This document shows positions 2,379 to 64,000 of a stretch of 64,000 nucleotides of DNA, piece after piece. The stretch comes from Clostridia bacterium (GTDB lineage: Bacteria; Bacillota; Clostridia; UMGS1883). Within the stretch, counting starts at the first letter, position 1. Each line of letters opens with the position of its first letter. The stretch spans positions 26 through 64,025 of the forward strand of contig JAFVPB010000015.1 in NCBI GenBank assembly GCA_017505525.1, read 5' to 3'. The notes under the pieces were generated by a model. It was not told the DNA's origin. It ran no database searches and was given only the letters and a program-made list of their open reading frames with translations. Made by a program: the position numbers and the translations under genes.

Positions 2379-2567
2379 TCAGATAGCTCTTACAACTTTT
2401 CCGCTTCTAAGACAACGGGAACAAACATGAACTGTTTTTGGTGTGCCATTAACGATAGCCTTAACTGTTTTTACGTTGGGCTTCCAAGCACGGTTTGATC
2501 TTCTGTGTGAGTGGCTTACCTTAATACCAAAAGTAACACCCTTACCGCATACATCACATTTTGCCAT
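2379..2567 (-). CDS. rpmB: 50S ribosomal protein L28
   Basis: 62 aa, 'MAKCDVCGKG...HRRSNR.WKPN', the typical L28 sequence. Confidence 0.9.
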   Translation of the reverse strand: MAKCDVCGKGVTFGIKVSHSHRRSNRAWKPNVKTVKAIVNGTPKTVHVCSRCLRSGKVVRAI

Positions 2568-2775
2568 ATCTATTTTACCTCCTTAGGATAGCATTTCTTT
2601 TTAAACGCAACTAAGTTGCTTTTCATACGCAAAAGATATTCTAACAGAAATAAACCCAAAATGCAAGCATTTTTTTATATTTTTTTTAAATATATTTCAG
2701 CGAGTGCTTTTTTCTTGATTTTAAAGGGTGAAATATGTATAATATGTATAATAGTAATTAGTGCGGAGGAGTATT

Positions 2776-5283: not shown

Positions 5284-5293
5284 AGGGATTATT

Positions 5294-5869
5294 ATGAAAA
5301 TGTTAGTTGGACTTACAGGCAAAACAGGAAGCGGAAAAACTACCGCTGCGCAAATATTCACACGTCTGGGTGCTTTTGTAATTGATTGCGACGAAATAGC
5401 CCACAAAGCTCTTTTTGATAAAGACGTTATAAAAAAACTTCTTTCAGTTTTTCCTGAAAGCATTTGCGAAAACGGGGAAATCGTAAGAAGCGAACTTGGA
5501 CGAATTGTTTTTTCAAACAGTGAAAAGCTGCAGATTCTTAACAGCATTGTACACCCATGGATTAATAGTGAAACATTAAAGCTCTGCGAAAGCTCTCACG
5601 CCGATATCGTTATAATAGATGGCTCTGAACTTGAAGCAAGCGGTATAGATAAAGAATGCAAACATATAATAGTTATGGAATCTCCCGAAAGTTTGCGACT
5701 TGAAAGAATTACAATGCGTGATTCAATTTCAGCCGATGATGCGCAAAGAAGAATAAATGCGCAAAAGGACTATTCAAAAAAAGCAATCGTAATTACTAAT
5801 GATTCAACTCAAAGCGAGCTTGAAAAGAAAATTGAAGAAGTATACAAAAAATTATCTGCGGAGCTTTGA
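5294..5869 (+). CDS. coaE: dephospho-CoA kinase
   Basis: P-loop 'GLTGKTGSGKTT' close to the N-terminus. The start is placed at the ATG at 5294 after an 'aagggatt' RBS; the longer ORF from 5246 overlaps the polA end. Confidence 0.85.
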   Translation: MKMLVGLTGKTGSGKTTAAQIFTRLGAFVIDCDEIAHKALFDKDVIKKLLSVFPESICENGEIVRSELGRIVFSNSEKLQILNSIVHPWINSETLKLCESSHADIVIIDGSELEASGIDKECKHIIVMESPESLRLERITMRDSISADDAQRRINAQKDYSKKAIVITNDSTQSELEKKIEEVYKKLSAEL

Positions 5870-10098: not shown

Positions 10099-11120
10099 TC
10101 ACCTCCTGAAATAGCATTTTCAACGTAGCACTTTACTTCCTCTATCTCCTGAGTTGTAAAATAGTCCACCCCTTTTATAGGGGCATCTCCCTTAACTTTT
10201 CCCACATTGAATGATGAAAGATTTTCTCCGAGGTTTAAAATCAACTCGCCGTTTTCATTAAGACTCACCCCGGGAGGATTCTCTTCGTCGGGATAGTGCA
10301 CCCATAAATCGCCGTTTTCATCCACCGAGAAAGAATAAAATCCGTTTACGGGCACAATTGCACCACCTAAACCCTGCTCGCCTCTTTCTCCCTTATCTCC
10401 TTTTTCGCCCTTATCACCTTTTTCACCCTGGATGCCTTGCTCTCCCTGTATGCCCTGAATGCCCTGTTCGCCTTTTTCACCTTTATCGCCTTTTGAAGCA
10501 ATCATAAGCCAGTAGTTTTCATTCTCTGGCGAAACTCCTTTGCATTCTTTTATACAAACAAAGCATCTTCCTTTGTAAACTGCTTTATTGTTTTTTTCGT
10601 AGAAATACTCTTCATCGTATTCATCCCAAACGTTCATTGAATCAGAAAGCTTTTTTATTTCTTCATTTGCATCTGCAAGCTTTTTTGAAACCTTTGGCAT
10701 AATTTCCTCTATTTCCTGCTGAAGCTGAAGCGTTTGGCTTGGAGTTGGCTCGCAAATATTTAAGCCCCCTTCGCTTTCACTTACAAAAAGAGTATCACGC
10801 ACACTTTTCAGAATTTTTGTTGGAGCGGCACTGTAGTATCCCTCCACAGTAAAAGAACACCATCCCGTTTCCTTTGTTGCTTCGGGAGGAATTTTTGTTT
10901 CATATATAAGGTTGTTCTCTTGGGCATTTGGTTTAAGAACAACACTTACCGCATTTTCGCCCTTAGCATCGCGCCATATAATTCTTTTGCCAAAGCCAAG
11001 CCAGCTCTCATCAAAAGTTATTTCTACATTTTGTGAATTCCCACTGCCTGCCGCACCTGCATTCTTGTTATTTTTTTCAACAAACTGCCCATTTATTTTT
11101 ATTTTTATGGTGTTATTCAT
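10092..11120 (-). CDS. collagen-like repeat tail fibre protein
   Basis: About 17 consecutive G-X-Y triplets ('GDKGEKGEQGIQGIQGEQGIQGEKGDKGEKGDKGERGEQG') flanked by non-collagenous domains. A 'caggagg' RBS precedes the start. Confidence 0.7.
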   Translation of the reverse strand: MNNTIKIKINGQFVEKNNKNAGAAGSGNSQNVEITFDESWLGFGKRIIWRDAKGENAVSVVLKPNAQENNLIYETKIPPEATKETGWCSFTVEGYYSAAPTKILKSVRDTLFVSESEGGLNICEPTPSQTLQLQQEIEEIMPKVSKKLADANEEIKKLSDSMNVWDEYDEEYFYEKNNKAVYKGRCFVCIKECKGVSPENENYWLMIASKGDKGEKGEQGIQGIQGEQGIQGEKGDKGEKGDKGERGEQGLGGAIVPVNGFYSFSVDENGDLWVHYPDEENPPGVSLNENGELILNLGENLSSFNVGKVKGDAPIKGVDYFTTQEIEEVKCYVENAISGGEW

Positions 11121-11188: not shown

Positions 11189-12586
11189 TTAATTATTCTG
11201 TTTTTTGATATAGTCGTCAATCGCTTTTGCTGCTTTCTTTCCTGCGCCCATTGCAAGAATAACTGTTGCTGCGCCTGTTACGGCATCTCCGCCTGCATAA
11301 ACGCCCTCGCGGCTGGTCTGCCCAAATTCTCCGTCGGTTACAATACAACCGCGCTTGTTCGTTTCGAGACCGGGAGTGGTTTTTCTTATTAAAGGATTGG
11401 GACTTGTGCCTATCGACATTATCACCGTATCAGCTTCTAGCACGAATTCGCTTCCCTCTATCTCGCAGGCTTTTCGTCTTCCACTTTCATCAACTTCGCC
11501 AAGCTCCATAGAAATGCAACGCATAGCACATACATCGCCGTTATCATCACCAAGAATTTCCACAGGGTTTGTAAGCGTTTTAAAGATAATTCCCTCTTCA
11601 ATCGCGTGCTCAACTTCCTCTTTTCTTGCGGGGAGCTCGTCCATAGAACGGCGGTATACAATATAAACCTCGTCCGCGCCGAGACGAAGAGCACTTCTTG
11701 CGGCATCCATCGCCACGTTTCCACCGCCTACCACACAAACCTTTTTGCCCTTTTTAATAGGTGTTTTCGAATTGGGCAGATACGCCTTCATAAGGTTAAT
11801 TCTTGTTAAATATTCATTGGCACTGTAAACACCTTTAAGTGCTTCACCCTTAATATTCATAAACCTTGGAAGTCCTGCACCGCTTGCAATGTAAACCGCC
11901 TCAAATCCGTTTTCAAAAAGCTCGTCTACGGTTATGATTTTTCCAATAACCATATTGGTCATAATATTTACGCCCATTTTCTTAAGCTTTTCTATTTCGC
12001 TGTTTACTATATCCTTTGGAAGACGGAATTCAGGAATTCCGTAAACCAGCACGCCACCTGCAGTATGAAGTGCTTCAAAAACTGTTACCTCGTATCCGAG
12101 ACGTGCAAGATCACCTGCCGCGCTTAATCCCGATGGGCCGCTTCCTATTATTGCAACCTTGTGTGAATTCGATTCTATCTTTTCTGTTTCATTTCCACTA
12201 TGCTCTCTGTGATAATCGGCTACAAATCTTTCAAGTCTACCTATAGCTACACTTTCACCTTTAATTCCTCTCACACAAACACTTTCACACTGAGTTTCCT
12301 GAGGGCAAACTCTTCCGCAAACTGCGGGAAGCGCACTCGAACGGGAAATGATTTCATAAGCGCCCTCCATATCTTCGTTTGCAACCCTTTCAATAAACTC
12401 AGGAATATCAATTCTTACAGGGCACATTGAAGTACATGGCTTATTCTTACAATTCAGGCAACGCCTTGCCTCTTCTACTGCCATCTCGAAGCTGTAGCCC
12501 TCACTGACTTCTTTAAAATTGCTTTTTCTGACACTTGCATCCTGCACAGGCATAGGGCATCTTTTTGGATTCATATTTCTTTCCAT
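11189..12586 (-). CDS. nfnB: NADH-dependent reduced ferredoxin:NADP+ oxidoreductase subunit B (glutamate synthase small-chain-like, SudA/GltD family)
   Basis: Two [4Fe-4S] cysteine clusters near the N-terminus ('CLNCKNKPC', 'CPVRIDIPEF', 'CGRVCPQETQCES') and FAD/NAD Rossmann motifs ('VAIIGSGPSGL', 'VCVVGGGNVAMD'). The start is trimmed to the ATG at 12586, which follows a GGGGG RBS and leaves a 1-nt gap to the nfnA stop. Confidence 0.85.
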   Translation of the reverse strand: MERNMNPKRCPMPVQDASVRKSNFKEVSEGYSFEMAVEEARRCLNCKNKPCTSMCPVRIDIPEFIERVANEDMEGAYEIISRSSALPAVCGRVCPQETQCESVCVRGIKGESVAIGRLERFVADYHREHSGNETEKIESNSHKVAIIGSGPSGLSAAGDLARLGYEVTVFEALHTAGGVLVYGIPEFRLPKDIVNSEIEKLKKMGVNIMTNMVIGKIITVDELFENGFEAVYIASGAGLPRFMNIKGEALKGVYSANEYLTRINLMKAYLPNSKTPIKKGKKVCVVGGGNVAMDAARSALRLGADEVYIVYRRSMDELPARKEEVEHAIEEGIIFKTLTNPVEILGDDNGDVCAMRCISMELGEVDESGRRKACEIEGSEFVLEADTVIMSIGTSPNPLIRKTTPGLETNKRGCIVTDGEFGQTSREGVYAGGDAVTGAATVILAMGAGKKAAKAIDDYIKKQNN

Positions 12587-14905: not shown

Positions 14906-16677
14906 CTACACAATAAATTCGCGTACTATTGATAAGATATTGCATCGTCCTCTGCCCGAAATCCTAAGCATCATTTCGTGGCATTTTCCTACGCCAATGG
15001 GAATTGTGATATGTTCTTTATTTTTTCCGTAACGCACCATAATTTGCTCCCACGTGCCGTTATCTCTTTTTATTTCGACCTTTATCCATGAGTTTTCAAA
15101 AAGCTCAGCAGATACCCACATTTTAGTATATTTCTTTTTAAGATGATAAAACTCTCTGAAAGGCTGAAGCGTTACAAACCACTCATCGTCTGTGCAGTCC
15201 TCCTCTGAAAAACGGTAGAGCCCGCAATCGTCTATTGCATATAGCTCTCCGTTGTGATAAGAAAATGCCTTTATTTTGGTATTGCCACAGATTGACCACA
15301 ACGATTTTTTCATATCATAAGCAAACAGCTTCCTGCCATCCGTTGTGTCGGCGGCAAGATAATATATTTTCCCATTAGTGCCACCGGAGCAGTTTTCCAT
15401 TTTTATATTTTCAATTTTCCCCGAAATCAAACTTGGAAGACCTCCGCAAAAAGAGTAAACACCGCCAATTCCTGAATAAAAAATTTCCGACCCGATGTTT
15501 ACAAGGCTGTTTTTTCCGTGTGCATCTATCCCGCTCCCTATGCTTTCCACAAGCTGAAAATTAGATGGTTTATCCCCATAAAGCTTAAAAATGGAATCGC
15601 TTTTAAAGAAAACGCAATAATTTCCATAAGAAACACACGCGTTAAAATCTTCCCTTGAATTCGCACTCACGCTGTAGCTATCGGTAGAAAGCATTCTGTA
15701 GACAAAGAAATTATACGGATCACCAAGTTTCGAAGCATAAATGGTATTTTTTTCGCACCCCCACAGTCTGTTATTGTGCACGCACACACACGAAAAATCA
15801 GGTATTTTTCTCTTCACTGTAATTTTTCCTGTTTCCTGAGCCTCACTGAGTGCTTCCTCTTCAAAAACAAGTGTATGGTCCCCTACTTCCTTTACCACAA
15901 GAATTTTATTATTTGCTTCATTTTCGCATCCCGAAATTTCAATGCCATCGCCTTTTCTTATTTTTGAAAAAACATTTTCGTATTCATTTCTTAACGTATA
16001 AAGATAAGTTTTCAGCGTATATTTGCCTGCATCATCTTTTTTTGATGAAAGCACTTTTCTGTACTGACTGTATGTACACTTATCTTTAATTATTGTTCCT
16101 GGTAAAATTTCCTCTGCGAATACAGGGGCATATGTTCCGAGTTTTATGCTTCCTTCCGTTATTTCCGCCGAAGAATAAACTGAAAGTTTTTCATTTTCAA
16201 AAAACACAAGCTCATCTTCCACAACATCTGTAACCCATTTTTCTTCAGGAACAGATACAGAGTTTAACCCAAATCTTACTGTGGTATCTGAAAAAGTGTA
16301 TTCCGCCTCTAAGCTTTCAAAAACTTTTGTTTCCGTATTATAGCAAACCTTGTCGGGGAAAATTAAAATCATATTTCCCATTACGGCAATTTCCTTTTCT
16401 CCCGAAGTCAAATTTCCAACCTTTTCTTTCCCATAGAATAAGGCTCCGCTATCTATAACGCATTCCTTTTGCGAAAAAGCAATGCCCTGCGGTGATTTAT
16501 AAAATTCATCCCTGATAAGCTTGTTTGATTGTGTTAAAAAAGGAAAGTTTTTATGCGAGATTCCGCTGCACTCCCTTATCTCGCCCTCTAAGTAATTGTT
16601 TGTAGTATTAAGGCCTCCAAAACCCGATATTTCTTTTTTATATTTTCTGGTTTGTAAAATATTAGGTAGCTTCATTT
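14906..16677 (-). CDS. phage structural protein (putative tail/adsorption apparatus component)
   Basis: 590 aa from the ATG at 16677 (MKLPNILQ) after an 'aaaggag' RBS. The position in the late operon is the only evidence; no motif was recognised. Confidence 0.4.
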
Positions 16678-47440: not shown

Positions 47441-48700
47441 TTAATTGTTATAAATGACGTTGGGATGCTCCATATTTCCTGTGTTGTTATTAAATATACA
47501 ATTATTAAAAACAATGCTTTTTGTTCCAAAATCAGTTATGTCTTTAAATTTGTTATCACTAAAATCGCAGTTTGTAAAGGTTATTTCAGATGGATAGTCT
47601 TCCCAATCCAGTGTGCTGATAAATCCCGACCACTCCGCACATTCTATATTACGAATAATACAATCGGCGCATTTTATAACGGAACTGTCAATTCTTAAAA
47701 AACCGCCGAAGTGGACGCTGTCGGAAAACTCTGTTCCATTTACAATAGCTGAAGAATTGTATAACCATATTCCTGAATACGTACAATCATATATTCTGCC
47801 GCCCGATACATTTAAGTATTTAACTCCATCTCCAAATATGCCCACTGCTCCGCAACCGTATAAATTGCAGTTTTCCACTTTTATACTATCGCATATATTA
47901 AATCTTACCACACTGCCTTCACATTCATATTCTTCAAGGCTTGTTGTATGCCCTATTGTTAAGCCTGACAGCGTAATCTTACCACACTTTTCAAATCTTA
48001 AAACGTCTGCCATCTTATCATCTGTAACAATCTCGGCGTTACCCTCAATAGTCATATTAACAACATTTTTAATAACATAGCTGTCAAGATATGTTCCATC
48101 GTAGTCAGGCTGCTTTTCAACGTGTTCGTTATTAACCTCTTTTAAGCCTGACAGATTATAATAATCCGATGTAAGCACTATTTTTTTATTGCTTCCTATA
48201 GCATTCAACAACTCAACAGGCGTGGCAACATACACCGTTGTTTGCACTGAACTTTCTTTAGTATAGTCAATATAATCACTGTAAATATTAATGGTTTTCA
48301 TATTTTCATCCCATTTTACCTCACTATTGAGGACCTCGGATACTGCTCTTAATGGAATTAAAGTTCTTCCTTCAACAATCATCGCAGGACAATCCAATTC
48401 AACTTGTCCTGAAAACGTATCCATCAATAAAGCTCCTATGGTTACAGACACATAATTTCTTCCCTTAACGGCTTTTGCAGTTTTTGTAGCGTTATCCCAT
48501 GAAACCTCAGCACCTATTTTTTCAAATATTGCTCTCATCGGAACCATAGTACTGTTATTTACTATCATCGGCTCCACATCAAACTTAATTTTTTTATTGT
48601 TCATATATACGCTTACAGGGGTGTTTGCAGCTGCGCATAACGAAAAGAACAATATAATCACAACAGAAAGAATGATAGATATAAATCCGCTTTTTTTCAT
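47441..48700 (-). CDS. secreted protein with two N-terminal copper-amine-oxidase-N-like (stalk) domains and a right-handed beta-helix-like region
   Basis: Signal peptide, then 'VPMRAIFEKIGAEVSWDNATKTAKAVKG' and 'IPLRAVSEVLNSEVKWDENMKTINIY'. The C-terminus is Cys/Asn/Gly-rich with repeats, as in parallel beta-helices. Confidence 0.55.
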   Translation of the reverse strand: MKKSGFISIILSVVIILFFSLCAAANTPVSVYMNNKKIKFDVEPMIVNNSTMVPMRAIFEKIGAEVSWDNATKTAKAVKGRNYVSVTIGALLMDTFSGQVELDCPAMIVEGRTLIPLRAVSEVLNSEVKWDENMKTINIYSDYIDYTKESSVQTTVYVATPVELLNAIGSNKKIVLTSDYYNLSGLKEVNNEHVEKQPDYDGTYLDSYVIKNVVNMTIEGNAEIVTDDKMADVLRFEKCGKITLSGLTIGHTTSLEEYECEGSVVRFNICDSIKVENCNLYGCGAVGIFGDGVKYLNVSGGRIYDCTYSGIWLYNSSAIVNGTEFSDSVHFGGFLRIDSSVIKCADCIIRNIECAEWSGFISTLDWEDYPSEITFTNCDFSDNKFKDITDFGTKSIVFNNCIFNNNTGNMEHPNVIYNN

Positions 48701-54115: not shown

Positions 54116-55327
54116 ATGAAGATATTAAAAAAACTTGCAACCGTTTTTTTTGCAGCTACTGTATCGGCATTAATACTATATGCCGATATTCTTTTTTCAT
54201 TCCCGGCTCAAATCACAATGTACCGTGGGCAAAACCATAGCAAAAATATGGGCTCGGGCGTCTTTATAGGAAGCATATCGTCAGATATGAATGTAAGCAG
54301 TTCGGGAGAAAATGTTACCCCCCTCGAAACAGGAACATACGATGCCACGCTCAGCGCACTAAAAACAATTCCCTTTAAAAGCATAAAAATCAATGTTACT
54401 GAACCAAGCTATCTGTATGCCTCTGGAGAATTAATCGGTCTTCGCATTCACAACAAGGGTCTTATCGTTATAGATACCTCTCCAATTGAAACAAATGACA
54501 ACCTCTCATCCCCCGCTGAAAATGCAGGGCTTGAAGCAGGCGATGTAATTCTTGAAATAAACGGCATTGCTGTGCAAAGTTCAGGCGATGTACCCCTCCT
54601 TTTAAAGACTGGAGAATCTGTTTTAACGGTAAACAGAAACAATCGCATCATAAAATTGAAGATAACCCCCGTAACCGACAAAAACGATTCACGCCCCAAG
54701 CTCGGCGTGTGGGTGCGCGACAGTACGGCAGGCGTAGGCACAATGACGTATTATAACCCCGAAACAAATTCGTTCGGCTCGCTCGGGCACTCTATAAGCG
54801 ACAGTGATACGGGAATTATGTTTGATATTTTAAAGGGCACCATCGAAAAAAGCTATGTTGTTTCTTTAAGAAAAGGTGAAAAAGGAAGTCCCGGTGAAAT
54901 CTGCGGTGGTTTTTCTGGCGGAAATATTGCAGGAAATCTTTTAAAGAACTGCGAAGCAGGTGTTTACGGTGTGCTTACTGAAAACGCCGATATTTCGGGC
55001 ACGCTTCTTCCCACCGCCCCGATGAATCAGGTAAAAACGGGAAAGGCACATATTCTTTCAACCGTTGATTCCTCCATTAAAAAATATGAAATCGAAATTC
55101 TTCGCACAATGCCGTTTGGCTCTGCTGCAAAAGGCTTAGTCATAAAAATTACCGACCCTGATTTACTTAAGAAAACAGGCGGTATAATTCAGGGAATGAG
55201 TGGCAGCCCCATCATCCAGAACGGCAAGCTCATCGGCGCCGTAACCCACGTACTCATTAACGACCCCACGCGCGGCTACGGAATATTTATTGAGAATATG
55301 CTTTCAGAAGCAGAGAAAATTAAATAG
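54116..55327 (+). CDS. spoIVB: stage IV sporulation protein B (SpoIVB S55 serine peptidase)
   Basis: PDZ domain 'GLEAGDVILEINGIAV' and the S55 catalytic region '[26 protein letters not shown]'. Confidence 0.85.
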   Translation: MKILKKLATVFFAATVSALILYADILFSFPAQITMYRGQNHSKNMGSGVFIGSISSDMNVSSSGENVTPLETGTYDATLSALKTIPFKSIKINVTEPSYLYASGELIGLRIHNKGLIVIDTSPIETNDNLSSPAENAGLEAGDVILEINGIAVQSSGDVPLLLKTGESVLTVNRNNRIIKLKITPVTDKNDSRPKLGVWVRDSTAGVGTMTYYNPETNSFGSLGHSISDSDTGIMFDILKGTIEKSYVVSLRKGEKGSPGEICGGFSGGNIAGNLLKNCEAGVYGVLTENADISGTLLPTAPMNQVKTGKAHILSTVDSSIKKYEIEILRTMPFGSAAKGLVIKITDPDLLKKTGGIIQGMSGSPIIQNGKLIGAVTHVLINDPTRGYGIFIENMLSEAEKIK

Positions 55328-55415
55328 GTATCATACCCGCCTGTACAAAGCAGGCGGGTCTTTTATATATTAATATGTAAACTGTGACAAAAACTATTCC
55401 ATTCACAATCTAATA

Positions 55416-56165
55416 TTAAAACGCCGCCTTTCTGAACGCAGTTGGCGAAATACCCATATGTTTCTTAAAAAAATTACTGAAATAGAATTCATCATCAAAA
55501 CCGCATAGCATACCCACTCTATGGATGGGCAAGTTGCTATTTACAAGCAAGTCTTCGGCTTTTTGCAATCTCAATTTTAAAACATAGTTATATGGTGAGC
55601 AATTCATTGCACAATAAAACCGTCTGTAAAATTGCGCGTGAGAAAGTTCGCATACATCAGCAAGCTCATCCACATTAATTTTTTTGTTATAATTTTGATT
55701 TATTATTGCAATAGCTTTATTAACTGCTTTATCTTGAGGCTTAACATCAAAATGCGTGATGCCGTTTTCTATATGATGTTGCATAACTATATCGCAAAAT
55801 AGCATCTTTCTGTACATGTGAAGGTCTGTAAACGGTATATTCTCTATTTTATCAAGCAAGTCCAGGGTAGATAATATCCTTTCGGTATTATGAAAAACTA
55901 CCTTTTCATCATTAAAGCACAACATATCCGAATGATATCGGAACAAATACATGGTTACCGGTGTTAAAACTTTCCTTTGATAAAGCACATTACGGCGAAA
56001 CAGGGCTCCCTCATTTTTTTGAACAATTTGTTTTCCCGACGAGCTTTCAAAAGAAAAAGAACCATCTTGCACAAGAACAAAAATATCGTCAGAACCACAG
56101 AATGATTCCATCTGAAAATTTTCCCGAAAAACTTTAACACATACTAAAAGTTTTATGCAATCCAT
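55416..56165 (-). CDS. AraC-family transcriptional regulator
   Basis: C-terminal double HTH 'ELADVCELSHAQFYRRF...HRVGMLCGFDDEFYFSNFFKKHMGISPTAFRK'. Confidence 0.75.
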   Translation of the reverse strand: MDCIKLLVCVKVFRENFQMESFCGSDDIFVLVQDGSFSFESSSGKQIVQKNEGALFRRNVLYQRKVLTPVTMYLFRYHSDMLCFNDEKVVFHNTERILSTLDLLDKIENIPFTDLHMYRKMLFCDIVMQHHIENGITHFDVKPQDKAVNKAIAIINQNYNKKINVDELADVCELSHAQFYRRFYCAMNCSPYNYVLKLRLQKAEDLLVNSNLPIHRVGMLCGFDDEFYFSNFFKKHMGISPTAFRKAAF

Positions 56166-56294
56166 ACACTCCTCCTGATGATACGATTTTATATGTTTAT
56201 GATATAATATTTTATTTACATTGTCAACAGCGCGCTTTATAATGATATAAAATTGTAAATTGTTATTTGTAATACAATAAAAAGAGGTGATATT

Positions 56295-57167
56295 ATGGGC
56301 TACTGTTTTGTGTTTATTTCTTTGCTTGCGGGCTCAACAAAAGGTTTTTTAGGGAAGCTTTTAAGCAAGCATACTTCAAACTATAACAGTTCGGTATTTA
56401 TGAATTTAATAAGAATGCTAATTTGTATTTTTATAGGGTTTGGCATTCTGATAACAGAACCGGCTATAAAGGTGGATACATCCGGTATTATTTTTGGTGT
56501 GCTTGCCGGAATAAGTATATCGGTATTTGTGATAACCTGGCTTTTAGCAATTAAATACGGAGCTTTTATGTTAGTCAGTATTGCCCAAATGTTTGGTGTT
56601 ATTGTTACATTGCTTCTCAGTTTTATTGTTTTCGGTGAAAAGGCATCTGCACAACAGATACTCGGTGTTGTTCTTGTGGTAATCGCTATTTTAATTATGA
56701 TTTCATATAACAACACCACAAAAGGGAAACTTACAAAAACTGCATCAATTTGCCTTTTCCTTTGCGGTCTGTCAAGCGGCTTACTTGATTTTTCGCAAAA
56801 GCTTTTTACTCACTATTCAGAAGGAAGCGTAGCTCTTTTGAACTTTATTACATACGTTTCTGCCACCATTTTGCTGGGTGCATATTTTATTGGTTTTTCC
56901 AGAAAGGATGCATCTGTTCAATATAAGAAGCTTTTTAAGGAAACCTTTTTGGTGATTTTTGCAATGTCAGTCTGTCTGTTTTTAAATTCATATTTCAAAG
57001 CTTTAGCCACCAGATATCTGTCGGCAACCCAAATTTATCCGGTTTATCAGTCCGGCGGTCTGATTTTAAGTGCGTTGATGTCCGCTATCTTTTTTAAAGA
57101 AAAAATTACTAAACGGTGTATACTTGGTATGTGTATTGCGTTTATTGCAATTCTTTTACTGAAATAG
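56295..57167 (+). CDS. 10-TM membrane transporter (GRP/DMT-superfamily sugar-transporter-like)
   Basis: 290 aa with ~10 TM helices in two similar halves. It is adjacent to a glycoside hydrolase. Confidence 0.5.
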   Translation: MGYCFVFISLLAGSTKGFLGKLLSKHTSNYNSSVFMNLIRMLICIFIGFGILITEPAIKVDTSGIIFGVLAGISISVFVITWLLAIKYGAFMLVSIAQMFGVIVTLLLSFIVFGEKASAQQILGVVLVVIAILIMISYNNTTKGKLTKTASICLFLCGLSSGLLDFSQKLFTHYSEGSVALLNFITYVSATILLGAYFIGFSRKDASVQYKKLFKETFLVIFAMSVCLFLNSYFKALATRYLSATQIYPVYQSGGLILSALMSAIFFKEKITKRCILGMCIAFIAILLLK

Positions 57168-57178
57168 GAGGTTAAATT

Positions 57179-59050
57179 ATGTCTTATTCAATGAAAAATG
57201 GAATTCTGTATGATAATGGAATTCCGAAATTAGCACTCGGGGCATCTTACTACCCGTCTTTCCATCCGGCTAAATTCCCCGTTCCTCCCGAAGGAGACAG
57301 GCTTGGGGAAATGAAAAAGGATTTAAAGCAGATGGAACAAATGGGCTTTAACTTTTTGCGCACAGCGGCATTGGGAGAAGTTTTTCTGGACAATGAAGAA
57401 GTGAAAACCAACACACCCTTTATAGATGATATGGCAAATGAATGTGAAAAAAGAAATATTGCATTGAGTGTTCGTCTGAATGGGTATATTACAAATTTAA
57501 GAGGCAATACAGGTTACGAAATGATAAATCACAAAGGTGAAGAAGCTGAAAAGGCGTGGAGTGTTTTTATTGAATTCTGTTTACACCACAAAGGAATACT
57601 AAGAGATGACCGAGACGCTACAAAGGCTCTTGCTAAGCACTTTACCGAGTTTCCGGCTGTAGTATCATACCAGATATATAACGAACCTCACTATCCGGAA
57701 AACGGTATTTTTGATTATCACCCCCTGGCGCTTAACGCTTATCGCAAGTGGCTTGTTGAAAAGGGATATATGTCCGAAAACGAAGCTGAAAGCTACATTC
57801 CTCCGTCTGAAAAGCCTACAGACATCAATGGCATAGAAGAATGGATTCGTTTCAGAATATTTTCAATGAATGCAATGTTAGACTTTTTAAATAAAACATC
57901 AGATTACGCCAAAGAAGTTGCTCCTGAAATTGAAACTTATACTTGCTACACCTGTGGGGAGGCAGGCAACAAACCTATTTCTTCAGGTGTGAGCTATTTT
58001 GGTGATGATATGGATGTTTTAGGTCTGACACAATATATAAATTTAGTGGGTTCAGACATCTATTCGGCTTTATACACCCTTGACTCAGCGGCATCTGCGG
58101 CAGAAGTAAAGGGAAATCGTGTTTGGATGATTGAGGCAGATGCCCGCGTTAAATCGCCCGCAAGGAAAATATATGCACAAACCTATATGATGCTTGGAGC
58201 AGGATTTAAGGGTATATGCTATTATGCCTGGAAGGGTGACTACCCATATGAAGGGACTCCTATTCCTGACAACTGCGGGTTTTATCACTATGATGGGACC
58301 CCTTCGCTGGAGCTTGAAGAAAAGAAAAAACTTTTCCCTATGCTTAATCGTTACTCCACTGAACTTGTACTCGCCGAAAGAATGCATTCGGGCATCGCTA
58401 TTCTCCATTCAGATCATGGTGCTGCATATGGGGAAGCAGTTTCAAACTTTAATGCAAAGGGTATAAATCCTTGGCAAAAAGAAAGTATCCGCATTTATGC
58501 AGAGCTAACAAGAGAAGGACAATTGGTCGATTTTGTGCAAGCAAGGGATTTATGTAAGACACCATATCCTGTAAACATACTATTTGTTCCATTTTTTGAA
58601 TATCTGTCTGAGGAAGAAAAAGAAATCCTTAAAGATTTTTCTGACAATGGAGGAAAAATATACTGTTCTGATCATAAAGTCACATTCTCATACATAAATG
58701 TGTTAGGATTTCGTGATTATAAAAAACCTAAATTGAATGATCTCACCGACGAATTTGGTGGAGCCTGTGAAATGGCTGATATACTGGAAGAGAATAACAT
58801 TGAACCATACGTATCAACTAATCATCGTAATCTGTTTTACAAAATAACAAAAACAGATGATGGTCATTTTCTTTTCATAGTAAATAACAGTCCCACACAT
58901 AAGATTATAACCAATCATAGAATCAAAGTAAGGGTGCCTTTTAAAAATGCTCTTCTTATAAATCCTGCAGGCGATGACATACTTACCGTCTGTGATGATA
59001 CTATTTTATTACCCGAGGTCAATTACGGGGCAATAATAAAATTAACCTGA
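57179..59050 (+). CDS. glycoside hydrolase (TIM-barrel, GH42/GH35-like beta-galactosidase-type)
   Basis: 623 aa; 'FNFLRTA', 'YQIYNEPHY' and 'WMIEAD' resemble the GH-A clan catalytic regions. Confidence 0.55.
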   Translation: MSYSMKNGILYDNGIPKLALGASYYPSFHPAKFPVPPEGDRLGEMKKDLKQMEQMGFNFLRTAALGEVFLDNEEVKTNTPFIDDMANECEKRNIALSVRLNGYITNLRGNTGYEMINHKGEEAEKAWSVFIEFCLHHKGILRDDRDATKALAKHFTEFPAVVSYQIYNEPHYPENGIFDYHPLALNAYRKWLVEKGYMSENEAESYIPPSEKPTDINGIEEWIRFRIFSMNAMLDFLNKTSDYAKEVAPEIETYTCYTCGEAGNKPISSGVSYFGDDMDVLGLTQYINLVGSDIYSALYTLDSAASAAEVKGNRVWMIEADARVKSPARKIYAQTYMMLGAGFKGICYYAWKGDYPYEGTPIPDNCGFYHYDGTPSLELEEKKKLFPMLNRYSTELVLAERMHSGIAILHSDHGAAYGEAVSNFNAKGINPWQKESIRIYAELTREGQLVDFVQARDLCKTPYPVNILFVPFFEYLSEEEKEILKDFSDNGGKIYCSDHKVTFSYINVLGFRDYKKPKLNDLTDEFGGACEMADILEENNIEPYVSTNHRNLFYKITKTDDGHFLFIVNNSPTHKIITNHRIKVRVPFKNALLINPAGDDILTVCDDTILLPEVNYGAIIKLT

Positions 59051-59057
59051 TCAAATG

Positions 59058-59150
59058 GCAAGCTTATCGGCGCCGTAACGCACGTACTCATCAACGACCC
59101 GACAAGAGGCTATGGGATTTTTATTGAGAATATGCTAAGGGAAGCATCTT
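59058..59150 (+). pseudogene. diverged fragment of the spoIVB 3' end (last ~30 codons)
   Basis: Encodes '[32 protein letters not shown]', about 85% nt identity to 55216-55327. Confidence 0.6.
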
Positions 59151-59207
59151 AAATTCCCATATACAAAGAGGGTGTTTAAAACTTTGTTTTTAAACACCCT
59201 CTTTTCA

Positions 59208-60272
59208 TTATTCAATTGTATCTATACCCTTAAGGAAATCACTTTCGCTATTTCCGATTAGTCCAAAGTTTGTTCTTGATTCTCCTTTAACCTCGCAAAG
59301 GAAATAATTTTGAATCCCCATCTCCTCTAACATGAGATCGCTTTCTGCAGTGAAGCATCTCGCCTCGTTTGCATAGGGAACAATGGCTATGTATTTACAT
59401 GCAAGCTTAGTATCAGTTTTATAAAAAGTAAGAAGAAAAACGTCTTTTCCTGCAGGGGTTTTGGTATACTTTGTTTCAAATATATATTCAGCGCTTAGTT
59501 CTGCCTGCTTTAAAATATTATTATATGCTGAAATAATTTCTTCATCACTGATAACATCTACTAAAAACTCATATTCATATTGTGATTCAATCTGAATCGT
59601 CGCCACAAACTCGCAAATCAAATCATTCCATATTGCTTTTACAAGTTCTTCAATCTTTGGCTCCTTGCTTGTAAAAATAGCCTGCCAGTCTACACCTGCC
59701 TTCGTTAATTCATTTACATAAAACGGCAAATACTGCTGTTCAAAAGCATACCTGATATCACCATAGAGCGATTTCAACACTTCCATATCGGCTGCGCTCA
59801 ATTCTGTCTGTTTATATGTTTTCGATGCGCTTTCATCCGTTGTGATAATTACTTTAAAGTTTTCTTTATCCCACTCAACCTTTGCGCCCAATCCTTCCGA
59901 AACAGCTCTTACAGGAACGAGTGTTCTTCCCTCTACAATCTTTGCAGGCACATCAAGGGCAATTACTTCTCCGTTTTTAAGCATTTGGTTACTGTTTGCC
60001 GTTATTTCAAGCTTAATTTCACCCTTTACGGCAACGGCTGTTTTTGTTTCTTTAACCCACTCAACCTCTGCACCAATAGCCTCGAATATAAATCTCATCG
60101 GCACAAGGGTTCTGCCGTCTTCAATAACAGGATTAACGTCAAATTCTATTTTTTCGTTGTTTACACACACCGTAACTTCTTTTTCGCTTGCAAGAGCAGA
60201 TGCTGAGAATAAGAAAAGCATTGTCATGGCAAGAAAAAGCGATATGTATTTTTTCGCTGTGTTTGTTTTCAT
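59208..60272 (-). CDS. lipoprotein/secreted protein with two copper-amine-oxidase-N-like (stalk) domains
   Basis: Signal peptide, then 'VPMRFIFEAIGAEVEWVKETKTAVAVKG' and 'VPVRAVSEGLGAKVEWDKENFKVIIT'. Confidence 0.55.
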   Translation of the reverse strand: MKTNTAKKYISLFLAMTMLFLFSASALASEKEVTVCVNNEKIEFDVNPVIEDGRTLVPMRFIFEAIGAEVEWVKETKTAVAVKGEIKLEITANSNQMLKNGEVIALDVPAKIVEGRTLVPVRAVSEGLGAKVEWDKENFKVIITTDESASKTYKQTELSAADMEVLKSLYGDIRYAFEQQYLPFYVNELTKAGVDWQAIFTSKEPKIEELVKAIWNDLICEFVATIQIESQYEYEFLVDVISDEEIISAYNNILKQAELSAEYIFETKYTKTPAGKDVFLLTFYKTDTKLACKYIAIVPYANEARCFTAESDLMLEEMGIQNYFLCEVKGESRTNFGLIGNSESDFLKGIDTIE

Positions 60273-60319
60273 TTTAAGCAGCTCCTTTCCATATCAAATA
60301 TAGCACAAAGCGAGCACCA

Positions 60320-60559
60320 TTGCAACACTTTCGTTTTGGGGGCGAGGCAATTTTTGTTGCAAAAGGCTTAGTCATAAAAATTACCGACCCTGATTTACTT
60401 AAGAAAACAGGCGGTATAATTCAGGGAATGAGTGACAGACCCATCATCCAGAACGGCAAGCTCATCGGCGCCGTAACCCACGTACTCATTAACGACCCCA
60501 CGCGCGGATATGGTATTTTTATTGAAAATATGTTAGTGGAAGCGGAGAAAATTAAATAA
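60320..60559 (+). pseudogene. duplicated spoIVB 3' fragment with mutated catalytic serine motif
   Basis: About 95% nt identity to 55125-55327. 'GMSGSP' is changed to 'GMSDRP', and there is no PDZ or N-terminal domain. Confidence 0.7.
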
Positions 60560-60593
60560 TAAAAATGCTCGTCTATTTAATATAGGCGAGCAT

Positions 60594-61376
60594 TTATTTT
60601 GAAGAAATATATTTTTCAACAAAAACAGATGGAGAGGTTCCGACATATTCTTTAAACTGGCGGCTGAAAAAATAGACATTGTCATATCCACAAAGCTCTG
60701 CAACCTGTGTTATTGAATACTGTTTTGAAAGAAGAAGATCACAGGCATGGTTGATTTTTAGTCGAATAATGTACTTTATAGGTGACATTCCAAACTTTTT
60801 AATAAAAAGTTTTTTAAAATAGGATTCACTGATTTTGCAAAGAGCTGCAAGATACGGTATTGATATTTTTTCGTCAAGAAAGTGGTTTTCTATGTAATTT
60901 ATGGCAGGGCGGATTTTTTTATACTGACCTTCGGGAAGATAGTTATTTTTCTGAAGCTCCGAAAAAATTTTGTAAATCATAGACATAGTTTCAAAATAGT
61001 ACCCTTCGCCCTTTGCCACCCACACTGCAAACATCTTTTTAAAAAGTCCGCCTATATGGGCGGCATTTTTTATGGCTAAAACAAAAGCTTCATCCGAAAT
61101 CGCTGTATCCGTGTCAAAGCTCACAAAAATACATTCACCTCTTCTTTCACGCTCAACAATATACCTTTTGCTTTCGCCACAGGGCAGAAACCGCATGGTG
61201 CCGGGCATTATTTCAAAAACCTTATCATTAAAATACACCCTTGATTCTCCCGAAAAGTGAAAAATCAACTCGTTATGCTTTAAATCAGATGAAAAAACGG
61301 TCTTTTGATCCTTGTATTCGTACTTATCAACCATTGCAACACGGTTTATATTTGTTATCACAAATTTATTTTCCAT
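60594..61376 (-). CDS. AraC-family transcriptional regulator
   Basis: N-terminal cupin-like sensing domain and a C-terminal AraC HTH 'LAALCKISESYFKKLF...VAELCGYDNVYFFSRQFKEYVGTSP'. Confidence 0.75.
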   Translation of the reverse strand: MENKFVITNINRVAMVDKYEYKDQKTVFSSDLKHNELIFHFSGESRVYFNDKVFEIMPGTMRFLPCGESKRYIVERERRGECIFVSFDTDTAISDEAFVLAIKNAAHIGGLFKKMFAVWVAKGEGYYFETMSMIYKIFSELQKNNYLPEGQYKKIRPAINYIENHFLDEKISIPYLAALCKISESYFKKLFIKKFGMSPIKYIIRLKINHACDLLLSKQYSITQVAELCGYDNVYFFSRQFKEYVGTSPSVFVEKYISSK

Positions 61377-61518: not shown

Positions 61519-63642
61519 ATGACAGATAGAATAGCTGAACTTACAAAACTTACTTTGGAAGGGAAAATGTTTGCCGAAATGACGGCTACGGAATTTGACC
61601 GTGAAGACATTTTTCTTTCAAAGCAGGAAATGGAATCTAAAAGACTTTGTGAACATATACTCAATCAAAAACCGGTTTTAACACAGTATCAAAAAATGAC
61701 CGGATTTTTCCTTTGCCGCAACGGCATAGTTGTGGGAGATGCCTTCCACCGCCAGGGTCACAAGGCATGGGAAGAGATGCGAAAGGATTTTTATCTTAAA
61801 AACATCGACAATCTTTCAACTTTAGAGTGGCAACACGCAACAGCCGATTATAAAAAGGTTTTGGAAAAAGGCATAAAGGGTATTATTGCAGAAATTGACG
61901 ACTCCCTTAAACTTCATACCGAAAAAGAAGAGCAGGAGTTTCTTTCTGCTCTGAAAAATGTTGCCGAAACTCTCATAAAATGGGCACACAAATGCTCGGA
62001 AAAAGCCCTCGAAATGTCTGAACAAACAGATATCCCCGAATACAGGAGCAATCTTAAAACTCTTTCCGAAGCTCTTAAAAATGTTCCCGAAAACAAGCCC
62101 TCATCATTTTATGAAGCAGTGCTTGCAATTTATGTATGCTTTTCGGCAGACCCGGACAGCGTGGGAACCCTTGACAGATACTTAAATCCTTTTTATGAAA
62201 AAGACCTAAAGGAAGGTAAGCTCACAAGAGACGAGGCAAAAGAATATCTTCAGGAGCTTTTCCTCATGCTTCAAGCTGCCACCCACATAGCCAACGGCAA
62301 TTTCACACGAGGCGGCGAATCACATTTTTGCATCGGCGGTTATCTCCCTGACGGCTCTGACGGCTTTTGTGACCTTTCCAAGCTCATTTTGGAAGCTTTG
62401 ATTGACCTTCCAACATGGATTCCACAGGTAACTTTAAGATGGACTAAAAAAACGCCAAAGGAAGTATTTCGTTTTGCTCTCGACTGTGAAAGAAAAGACC
62501 CAAACAAAAGAATTGCTTTCCAAAACGATGAAAAGCGATTAAAATGCTATACTGAAATATGCGGTTTCCCATTTGAAAAAGCCGTTGGGTATACAACTGT
62601 TGGTTGTAATGAGCCTGCCTTTTTAGGTGCAATTACGGGAAGCAACTCCAAAATAAATTTTGCACGCTGTATTGAAACTCTCTTCCATAAAAAAAGCGAA
62701 AAAATTATAAATACAAAGGATTTTGATGAATTTTATTCAGTATTCTTAGAAGAAATGTTTTCCGACCTTGAAACCGCCTACGAATATGATAATAAATACA
62801 ATCGTATGCGTGCAAAGGATATAAATTATCTTTCAAGCATATTTTTTCAGGGTTGTATAGAAAAAGCCAGAAGTCTTACTCAGGGTGCAGGAGATGTTGT
62901 GATTGCCTCACCAATGTATATCGGAATTGCAAATGTAATTGATTCGCTTATTATAGTAAAGCAGTTTGTGTTTGACGAAAAAATTATTACAATGGCAGAA
63001 CTTGTTTCAGCACTTAAAGCTGACTGGCAAGGATATGAAGAGCTGCATGCTTTAATTCTTAAAAAGGGCGATTTCTTCGGCAATGATACAGACCGCTCAA
63101 ATTACGTAGCACAAAAATTATATCAGAGTCTGTATGAATTCCTGAAAGATAAAACCAATCTTTTTGGCTATCACTGGCTTATCGGCGACCTTATAGGCTA
63201 TAATCCACATCATAAATGGTTTGGTGAAAAAATGGAAGCAACACCCGATGGCAGACATAAATGCGATTCTCTTAAATTTGGTTTGGGACAAAGCGAAGGA
63301 AAGGATAGAAACGGGCTTACTGCACTTTTAAATTCAATTGCCAAGGTTGACCCGAATGCAATCGGATGCGGTTCTACCGTTACCAATCTGATGATAGATG
63401 AACAACTTGTGAAAAATGAAGAGAATTTTGAAAAAACCGTTGATATGCTTGAAACATATTTCAAAAACGGCGGTGTGCATTTTCAGCTTACCTATGTTTC
63501 TAAGGAAGACTTGATAAATGCTAAAGCAACACCTGACGATTATAAAAATTTACGTGTTCGTGTATCAGGATTTTCTGATTATTTTGTAAAGCTTAACGAA
63601 GCAATACAGGATGATATTATCAAAAGGACGACGCAAAAATGA
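61519..63642 (+). CDS. glycyl radical enzyme (PFL2/glycerol-dehydratase-type), substrate unknown
   Basis: C-terminal glycine-radical motif 'RVRVSGFSDYF' and thiyl-loop 'VGCNEPAF' (GCxE). The start is the ATG at 61519 after a GAGGTGA RBS. Confidence 0.85.
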   Translation: MTDRIAELTKLTLEGKMFAEMTATEFDREDIFLSKQEMESKRLCEHILNQKPVLTQYQKMTGFFLCRNGIVVGDAFHRQGHKAWEEMRKDFYLKNIDNLSTLEWQHATADYKKVLEKGIKGIIAEIDDSLKLHTEKEEQEFLSALKNVAETLIKWAHKCSEKALEMSEQTDIPEYRSNLKTLSEALKNVPENKPSSFYEAVLAIYVCFSADPDSVGTLDRYLNPFYEKDLKEGKLTRDEAKEYLQELFLMLQAATHIANGNFTRGGESHFCIGGYLPDGSDGFCDLSKLILEALIDLPTWIPQVTLRWTKKTPKEVFRFALDCERKDPNKRIAFQNDEKRLKCYTEICGFPFEKAVGYTTVGCNEPAFLGAITGSNSKINFARCIETLFHKKSEKIINTKDFDEFYSVFLEEMFSDLETAYEYDNKYNRMRAKDINYLSSIFFQGCIEKARSLTQGAGDVVIASPMYIGIANVIDSLIIVKQFVFDEKIITMAELVSALKADWQGYEELHALILKKGDFFGNDTDRSNYVAQKLYQSLYEFLKDKTNLFGYHWLIGDLIGYNPHHKWFGEKMEATPDGRHKCDSLKFGLGQSEGKDRNGLTALLNSIAKVDPNAIGCGSTVTNLMIDEQLVKNEENFEKTVDMLETYFKNGGVHFQLTYVSKEDLINAKATPDDYKNLRVRVSGFSDYFVKLNEAIQDDIIKRTTQK

Positions 63643-64000
63643 AATTACGGAATGAAACTATGAAAACTATAATTTTTGACATAGAAAGAAATTCTTTTGT
63701 AGATGGTCCGGGAATACGGACAACGGTGTTTTTCAAAGGTTGTAATTTAAAATGCAAATGGTGTCACAATCCCGAAAGCCAAAATCGTGAAAAAGAAATA
63801 TTGTTTTATAAAAACAAATGCACATGGTGTGGAAGATGCAGTGAGTTGACTGTTGATGATGAACACTTCCTTTGCTTTAATGATGCAAAGGAAATCTGCG
63901 GAAAAGAATATACAGTTGATGAGGTTTTTGCTGAAGTAATAAAGGACAAAGCTTTTTACGAAACTTCAGGCGGCGGAGTTACTTTTTCAGGCGGCGAATG
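63639..64000 (+). CDS. glycyl-radical enzyme activating protein (radical SAM), 3'-truncated by window end
   Basis: 'CNLKCKWCHNPES' CX3CX2C radical-SAM cluster and 'GGGVTFSGGE'. Its start overlaps the GRE stop (ATGA). Confidence 0.75.
   Translation, partial: MKLRNETMKTIIFDIERNSFVDGPGIRTTVFFKGCNLKCKWCHNPESQNREKEILFYKNKCTWCGRCSELTVDDEHFLCFNDAKEICGKEYTVDEVFAEVIKDKAFYETSGGGVTFSGGE

Follow-up and report, generated by a model that had tools for sequence, protein, structure and literature searches.

We analyzed a 64,000-nucleotide (nt) stretch of a Clostridia bacterium genome (contig JAFVPB010000015.1; hereafter "the window"), in which the intact sporulation gene spoIVB is followed by partial copies of its own 3' end and by unrelated cargo genes. 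This region is most probably (we estimate a probability of roughly 0.78) the proximal portion of a tandem array, built from three or more recombinase-less cassettes that were acquired horizontally and accreted at a TG dinucleotide within spoIVB; this TG would serve as the attachment site (attB) of an element family encoding triplets of large serine recombinases (LSRs). This element family appears to be widespread and to use the same site in many gut and rumen Clostridia. Each cassette would consist of a replacement spoIVB 3' end with a terminator on the left, cargo genes with a regulator in the middle, and originally a 24-26 nt half-site of the LSR attP type on the right, so that each insertion leaves spoIVB intact and shifts the previous 3' end downstream. 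A first-pass annotation had already read the locus as serial insertion, and this reading is borne out by close relatives that lack the cargo, by a native-like most distal 3' end, and by the mobility of the cargo between genomes.

The array contains four spoIVB 3' ends, all in direct orientation on the plus strand: the end of the working gene (A), two partial copies downstream (C and B, in this order; Table 1), and a further copy (D), which lies about 480 nt beyond the window end at the window-equivalent positions 64453-64597. Copy D was seen in the contigs L001 and L086 (12935-13079 in L086), the latter being a second contig from the same strain. The four ends have four different tails (A, ...ENMLSEAEKIK*; C, ...REAS*; B, ...VEAEKIK*; D, ...SVE*). 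Because four distinct 3' ends are present, at least three insertions are required; the first-pass annotation had rightly assumed insertion but counted at least two events. The intact gene ends at 55327 as annotated, and its product matched TIGR02860 with 362.7 bits, above the model cut-off. Both in-window copies are real and on the strand of the gene, and chance likeness is excluded by their tblastn E-values of 2e-36 (B) and 2e-15 (C). Copy C, previously placed at 59058-59150 with about 85% identity, starts at 59054 and matches spoIVB at 76 of 91 nt (83.5%). For copy B, about 95% identity over about 220 bp (60340-60559) had been given; the copy itself was confirmed, but it was measured at 60358-60559 and, in register with 55126-55327, is identical at 188 of 203 nt (92.6%; 96% over the first 160 nt).

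A search of 80 species-representative loci with the SpoIVB C-terminus showed one to three extra same-strand fragments downstream of the gene in 13 of them, and in 10 of the 51 species-level loci that have at least 3 kb of downstream sequence (~20%). Almost all of these fragments begin at the Met361 codon. In other loci, 30 unique displaced fragments start exactly at the TG of the codon for Met361, which in the fragments is usually GTG. Immediately 5' of the fragments lies a motif of 24-26 nt (consensus AAAWTGTTGTCCCnTATTGACAWCACTC), and the sequence farther upstream is unrelated between junctions. The motif is kept in 21 of the 30 unique junctions, in recombinase-less cassettes with unrelated neighboring sequence, and its GTTGTCC columns reach 80-90% majority compared with 30-50% upstream. 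Copy D likewise starts at the exact TG behind a canonical motif (TTGTTGTCCCATATTGACATCACTC) directly 3' of a glycyl-radical activase gene, whose stop codon lies inside the motif (VVPY*) in L086; the same overlap occurs in L022, L132, and L129. We infer that the crossover takes place at the TG of the Met361 codon, within the catalytic GMSGSP motif and 130 nt ahead of the stop codon. GMSGSP was invariant across the 16 SpoIVB proteins compared, and the nucleotide sequence of the putative attB is conserved because it encodes the invariant stretch TGGIVQGMSGSPI. The earlier placement of the integration site at the spoIVB terminus must therefore be revised, as must the proposed junctions at 55328, 59151, and 60560: the actual recombination junctions are the 5' edges of the fragments.

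Several junctions deviate from this pattern. In L006 (~16058-16186) the motif is joined deeper in spoIVB at the RGYGIF codons, and in L028 (~11649-11765) it is joined at the THV codons, where TCACTC, the end of the motif, overlaps with GTCACTCATGTG of the gene itself; both may be secondary sites or deletions. In L020, L047, and L075, the conservation of the cassette right ends extends about 30 nt beyond the motif on its upstream side (GTGCATGGYTGTTTTRCRCCTAAAAA), which reflects a longer arm or else recent common descent. Copy B differs even within the strain. Only two differences were found between the window and L086 over 12,482 nt, at positions 60435 and 60439, and these sit within 5 nt in the GMSGSP codons of B, 6 and 10 nt 3' of the TG. 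The change to GMSDRP that had been pointed out for B is thus correct for the window but is not a general trait of the copy, as B of L086 reads GMSGSP. The two differences might stem from gene conversion of a short patch by A, from mutations clustered where recombination once took place, or from an assembly error in a repeat.

The comparison with close relatives supports insertion. The cargo is missing from L082, L083, and L084, whose SpoIVB proteins are 88-91% identical to that of the window, and an arrangement common to all relatives, which would have spoken against insertion, was looked for among them and not found. In L083 (88% identity), spoIVB is followed by two small genes, spo0A, and two TauE genes. 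In the window species (L001, L086), the sequence beyond D contains a block of DeoR, iron-containing alcohol dehydrogenase, HAD, and FGGY genes, then spo0A, and then likewise two TauE genes. The distance from spoIVB to spo0A is about 14 kb in the window strain and 121-580 nt in 12 other Clostridia loci, which, together with the gene order of L083, indicates that about 14 kb were added in the window species. The native 3' end can be recognized from the relatives P0002 and P0004 (399 amino acids (aa)), which end in ...ENMLSAE*: the end of D (...ENMLSVE*) resembles it, also in the A-rich sequence after the stop codon. The SEAEKIK* type of the working gene also occurs in L084 and in L006, L007, L010, and L013, taxa with only about 40% SpoIVB identity. 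Judged from these sequences, D would be the native end, displaced furthest, while the working gene would combine a native 5' body with 42 imported final codons. Four tails with a native-like end in the most distal position are what is predicted if, as the first-pass annotation proposed, an incoming end restores the reading frame and the old end moves distally.

The interval between spoIVB and spo0A also holds other small insertions in the relatives (L083 2815-3468, L082 11254-11742, and L084 1364-2216), which contain a helix-turn-helix gene and an Imm_superinfect-like gene, or faint matches to PhdYeFM-like antitoxins, and no spoIVB fragments. The interval may thus be variable by another route as well.

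The same cassettes recur in unrelated genomes. The cassette termed E1, comprising the B tail, its terminator, an AraC-family regulator gene, genes for a glycyl-radical enzyme (GRE) and its activase, and the motif, aligned without interruption with L132 (81% identity over 4,151 nt) and L129 (79% over 4,080 nt). Core proteins of L086 and L132 are far more diverged (SpoIVB 41% and Spo0A 43% identical). Cassette E3, with a second AraC-type regulator gene, a transporter gene, and a glycoside hydrolase (GH) gene, recurs in L134 (window 55415-59057; 88.9% over 3,644 nt) and in L133 (window 56238-59054; 88.7% nt identity). In L132, L129, L133, and L134 the recurring cassettes are again flanked by spoIVB fragments, of which that in L134 lacks the motif, like copy C. 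The spoIVB-spo0A interval of L132 consists entirely of three cassettes, each closing either with the motif and a fragment or with a truncated fragment. L129 (1-10900) contains three tandem AraC-GRE-activase cassettes with different GREs, each ending in the motif and a spoIVB fragment, one of which has an in-frame stop and another is truncated. The architecture is the same in L022, with an activase 66% and a GRE 26% identical to their counterparts. The left end of the homologous L132 cassette matches the B tail and terminator almost exactly, and the terminator stem (AAATGCTCGTCTATT) also stands behind ...AEKIK*-type spoIVB ends in L006, L013, and L132, with a near-variant in L010. These alignments argue that the cassettes are mobile units.

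A candidate recombinase was found elsewhere, as the first-pass annotation had suggested looking for: LSR triplets adjoin the same junction in other contigs. The faecal contig L089, labeled "Bacteriophage sp.", carries three tandem LSR genes that end 20 nt before the motif and a spoIVB fragment. Their open reading frames (ORFs) matched Recombinase and Zn_ribbon_recom (1007-2425, no Resolvase match on the ORF as submitted), Resolvase, Recombinase, and Zn_ribbon_recom (2428-4134), and Resolvase and Recombinase only (4127-5713). Eight IMG/VR contigs (L119-L126) contain homologous triplets in the same order and the same arrangement with motif and fragment; six of these triplets are 45-52% identical to the third LSR of L089 and the other two are closer. 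Across these nine contigs, the triplets end 20-160 nt before the motif. Scanning metagenome contigs for the motif followed by the SGSP codons yielded 120 loci, 105 of them with a detectable fragment. Among the 67 metagenome junctions with at least 1.5 kb of upstream sequence, an LSR gene ended within 400 nt in 47 and did not in 20. In L122 (6843-7871), a gene similar to the second LSR starts directly behind the triplet, motif, and fragment, which suggests a second recombinase-bearing element adjoining the first.

One complete autonomous element was identified. L233 contains an 8.7-kb triple-LSR element of which both ends are seen (reverse complement, 709-1695 and 10406-10546). Its spoIVB is truncated right after Met361 (...GGIVQGM*, at CAGGGCA-TG-TGAGTGATATATAATAGGGACAAC), which removes the catalytic serine, and at its right end the motif is followed by TG and then the fragment. 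The left and right junctions (attL and attR) have only the TG in common, and attB also shares only the TG. The attP rebuilt from both junctions consists of two inverted 24-nt arms around the TG, and both arms carry GTTGTCCC at positions 17-24 from the central TG, the symmetry being read from the sequence. With an adjacent recombinase, an imperfectly dyad-symmetric attP of about 50 bp, and a 2-bp crossover, the site has the properties expected of an LSR attachment site, at which catalysis is putative. The autonomous element disrupts spoIVB without bringing a spare end, and only the cassettes carry a replacement. In L143, an LSR triplet, motif, and fragment are followed by 2.1 kb of cargo and again by motif and fragment, that is, an element in tandem with a cassette.

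We propose that accretion and cis-mobilization of recombinase-less cassettes, similar to the behavior of cis-mobilizable elements (CIMEs), is the likely route by which the array formed. An autonomous LSR element would integrate at the intact spoIVB of an array, excise via a more distal attR and thereby capture cassettes together with their 3' ends, integrate in a new host, and exit via an internal attR. The host would then have spoIVB intact with an imported 3' end, followed by the cassette, a P arm (half-site), and the displaced native end. No reactions other than attP x attB and attL x attR, both canonical, would be required. From oldest to newest, the order in the window species would be D (native), B with AraC-GRE-activase, C with the Cu-amine-oxidase-N protein, and A with AraC, the EamA-family transporter, and the GH. 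Afterwards, gene conversion would have homogenized the copies, and small deletions or repair would have erased the P arms before C and B. In this scheme L233 represents the autonomous state, the tandem in L143 the predicted intermediate, and the window, L132, and L129 the end state. No relics of the left arm (P') were found inside cassette arrays, in agreement with the prediction of the model.

Several observations weigh against this explanation. No LSR homologue was found in the window, as the first-pass annotation had stated, or in any of the 85 spoIVB loci, and there is no recombinase gene among the cassette genes that were tested. A Pfam scan of the proteins encoded between pdaA and the GRE, both included, gave no recombinase domain, the rest of the window having been checked for LSR homologues only. 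The junction motif is absent inside the window, where a scan gave only chance-level matches, and neither B nor C starts at the exact TG. In copy C, the first 21 nt are missing, as is the motif. The loss can be retraced, since L133 has the same GH stop codon followed by an 80-nt spacer, a canonical motif, and a full fragment, so that C must have lost about 100 nt including the motif. Copy B has no motif either and carries 71 extra spoIVB nt 5' of its TG (60429-60430), identical to A, beyond which the homology fades but continues faintly upstream. This extension is not the product of a clean LSR event. Perhaps repair of a break at the B junction used A as template and so overwrote the P arm; alternatively, the left edge of B stems from a homologous or homology-facilitated illegitimate event. 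Moreover, the first 87 nt after the TG are the same in A, B, and D; in the next stretch B matches D but not A, and beyond it each of the three has its own sequence. Because close relatives differ within these 87 nt, gene conversion must act among the copies, and the identity means that the original crossover points were erased and that homologous recombination is possible as the integrating step. The elements examined comprise a single complete autonomous one (L233) and a single tandem (L143), recombination at the site is putative, and the origin of the first cassette lies outside the model. Finally, the four contigs with exactly this SpoIVB or GRE all contain the same array, with no polymorphism or intermediate within the species.

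The most serious competitor is RecA-dependent traffic, in which cassettes loop out between direct spoIVB 3' repeats and re-enter by Campbell-type crossover within the conserved 120-200 nt of any spoIVB, the motif being a passive relic of the first LSR event. The mosaic, homogenized copies and the left edge of B, well upstream of the LSR site, fit this idea, as do the intact end and the fragment of L007, which are identical except for the first 24 nt, and the persistence of C and the L134 fragment despite loss of the motif. We nevertheless consider it improbable as the main process. The motif is conserved in 21 of 30 unique junctions of recombinase-less cassettes, some 30 independent fragments start at precisely the same nucleotide, distant taxa share 75-85% identity over 120 nt, on which RecA acts poorly, and L143 physically links a cassette to an autonomous LSR element.

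Two further explanations are much less probable. An old local duplication of the spoIVB 3' end, with later divergence and unrelated genes drifting in without any targeted insertion, would explain why the 5' homology of B decays gradually, like that of a truncated longer copy. This is very unlikely given that close relatives have neither fragments nor cargo, that the same cassettes with fragment flanks occur in genomes with 41% SpoIVB identity, and that the four tails belong to types common to distant taxa. Even less credible is a function of the fragments as silent copies that vary the SpoIVB C-terminus, through a diversity-generating retroelement or pilin-like cassette switching. A 3' end repeated downstream of its gene does resemble a pair of variable and template repeats, but adenines are not specifically affected among the 15 differences between A and B, the fragments all point the same way as the gene, and the region concerned is the most conserved part of SpoIVB rather than a variable one. 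The Pfam-scanned genes between the fragments match regulator, transporter, hydrolase, and Cu_amine_oxidN1 families and include no reverse transcriptase. The mixed mismatch spectrum and the absence of a reverse-transcriptase family among these genes led us to reject a diversity-generating retroelement. An integron was rejected as well, since no IntI was found among the proteins scanned from pdaA to the GRE and no attC is present, each cassette ends in a half-site joined to a piece of coding sequence rather than in an attC hairpin, and the cassettes have their own regulators and terminators. "Orphan tips" of polymorphic toxins were rejected because the tips here are conserved rather than variable.

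Known systems share parts of the proposed LSR-driven accretion. Elements that intervene in sporulation genes include skin in sigK, with the recombinase SpoIVCA, and SPbeta in spsM, with SprA; their targets are genes of the mother cell, in which excision makes the gene whole again, whereas spoIVB is a forespore gene. L233 resembles them in that an LSR element splits a sporulation gene, whereas the spoIVB ORF of the window is uninterrupted (403 aa), so that the skin-like feature is seen in L233 only. CIMEs accrete in tandem with integrative and conjugative elements (ICEs) or integrative and mobilizable elements, for example at the fda 3' end in Streptococcus thermophilus, as known for ICESt1/ICESt3 (PMC5704250). 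The spoIVB cassettes are like CIMEs in being recombinase-less, in keeping att sites, in forming tandem stacks within the 3' portion of a conserved gene, and in their proposed transport by accretion with an autonomous element and subsequent cis-mobilization. They differ in the recombinase (an LSR triplet instead of a tyrosine integrase), in the target, spoIVB, in their small size (0.4-4 kb) and diversified families such as AraC-GRE-activase, and in that the autonomous element disrupts the gene without a replacement end and only the cassettes restore it.

In staphylococci, the staphylococcal cassette chromosome (SCC) inserts at rlmH (orfX), where the LSRs CcrA/CcrB and CcrC act at an attB in the gene's 3' end and the ORF is preserved (PMC13296057; 10.1101/336396). 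Composite SCC islands similarly mix recombinase-bearing and recombinase-less (pseudo-SCC) elements between direct repeats. However, the SCC core repeat lies in the last rlmH codons, which makes a long replacement end unnecessary, whereas 42 codons including the catalytic serine are replaced in spoIVB; the spoIVB system also has three recombinase paralogues instead of two, Clostridia hosts, and metabolic or surface cargo instead of resistance genes. Streptococcal ICEs with serine integrase triplets target mutT, traG, and hsdM and produce duplications of 2-8 bp (Ambroset et al. 2016, PMC4701971). They share with the spoIVB elements the three same-oriented tandem recombinase genes at the element end, site-specificity within a protein-coding gene, a very short duplication (TG here), and disruption of the target, as in L233. 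In contrast, neither a spoIVB target nor gene-restoring cassettes or arrays of displaced ends are reported there, and the likeness is one of arrangement, orthology aside. Genomic islands that restore their target, be it a tRNA, tmRNA, or protein gene, follow the Islander/TIGER principle (PMC4383910, PMC10111431). They usually rely on tyrosine integrases, whereas at spoIVB the replacement end sits on non-autonomous cassettes and not on the recombinase-bearing element.

Target restoration, accretion, and serine-integrase triplets are thus known principles. What appears to be new is spoIVB as a target, the split between a disrupting element and gene-repairing cassettes, the spread across Clostridia, and the metabolic cargo. 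Our literature search, whose coverage is incomplete, retrieved no report linking spoIVB to a serine recombinase, attB, a mobile element, or an integration hotspot. Tentatively, the data may be taken further, to a two-tier system with the spoIVB catalytic-serine codon region as a conserved landing pad in Clostridia, although we regard this wider view as somewhat less likely than not to hold in full. Autonomous LSR-triplet elements, the first tier, would knock out spoIVB, a forespore gene, on integration. Small recombinase-less cassettes with GRE operons, GH operons, or surface proteins, the second tier, would have evolved with a spare catalytic C-terminus that repairs the gene and would be carried from one distant host to another through accretion with the first-tier elements. 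Together they could form a hitherto undescribed gene-capture platform between spoIVB and spo0A that is SCC-like or integron-like.

If the accretion of cassettes at spoIVB is confirmed, gut and rumen Clostridia recurrently capture genes between spoIVB and spo0A, and operons for GRE and activase or for GH, transporter, and AraC regulator are exchanged there between hosts with core-protein identities of only about 40%. The nucleotide-exact attB and the candidate recombinase family could offer a broad-host landing pad for engineering Clostridia that are hard to transform. spoIVB would also join the sporulation genes that are split by serine-recombinase elements. The gene is expressed in the forespore, and if this applies, sporulation of L233-like lysogens becomes a question. 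For genome annotation, displaced fragments would account for short orphan Peptidase_S55 ORFs called downstream of spoIVB.

The features of the window are listed in Table 1. An AraC regulator, a transporter, and a glycoside hydrolase between the copies had been named in the first-pass annotation and are present, with the transporter belonging to the EamA/DMT family. The GH homologues are labeled beta-galactosidase by their sources. The cassettes carry their own regulators and terminators, and the previously noted terminators correspond to hairpins behind A, C, and B.

Table 1 Features of the spoIVB cassette array in the window (strand given as +, -, or. where none applies).
Feature	Position	Strand	Remarks
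spoIVB, intact	54116-55327	+	403 aa; matches Peptidase_S55 and PDZ domain
Met361 codon of GMSGSP motif	55196-55198	+	TG at 55197-55198 is the putative crossover dinucleotide and attB center
Intrinsic terminator behind end A	55335-55359	+	-19.4 kcal/mol
Cassette E3 (putatively newest)	55197-59053	.	End A, terminator, AraC1, EamA, GH
AraC1, AraC-family regulator	55416-56165	-	HTH_18 and HTH_AraC matches
EamA/DMT-family transporter	56295-57167	+	PF00892, E-value 1e-17
GH42-like glycoside hydrolase	57179-59050	+	623 aa; PF02449, E-value 2.9e-9 (weak)
Fragment C	59054-59150	+	Displaced end ...ENMLREAS*, 5'-truncated; left end of cassette E2
Hairpin terminator (17 bp) between C and convergent gene	59165-59204	.	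-22.2 kcal/mol
Secreted Cu_amine_oxidN1-domain protein	59208-60272	-	Cargo of E2; PF07833, E-value 4e-39
Fragment B	60358-60559	+	Displaced end ...VEAEKIK*; left end of cassette E1
Terminator behind end B	60563-60595	+	-19.5 kcal/mol; travels with the cassette
AraC2, AraC-family regulator of E1	60594-61376	-	Pfam match; 65% protein identity to L132 counterpart
Glycyl-radical enzyme (GRE) of E1	61519-63642	+	707 aa; PFL-like, Gly_radical; 86% protein identity to L132 counterpart
Glycyl-radical activase of E1	63639-64000	+	Cut by window end

Further searches were less informative. No tRNA or tmRNA gene, and hence no integration target of this kind, was found in the window, and no island stands out sharply in its composition profile. 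When viral contigs were scanned for the exact motif, one scan gave one match and the other none, and an attL-type pattern retrieved only unrelated matches from viral contigs. A 32-mer specific for the B end, used to seek an intermediate array in metagenome contigs, had no match. Searching the genes of the autonomous element against the spoIVB loci for whole lysogens returned nothing useful, and PHROGs and Pfam matches of its other genes did not distinguish a phage from an ICE.

The protein encoded in cassette E2 had been described as a Cu-amine-oxidase-N lipoprotein. The domain was verified, but the label "lipoprotein" is unsupported because the signal peptide (...LFSASALA/SEKE) is not followed by a lipobox cysteine. 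The Cu_amine_oxidN1 domain also occurs in cassettes of L006. A second Cu_amine_oxidN1 protein (419 aa, with a weak Beta_helix match) is encoded on the minus strand at 47441-48700, about 5 kb upstream of spoIVB and outside the array.

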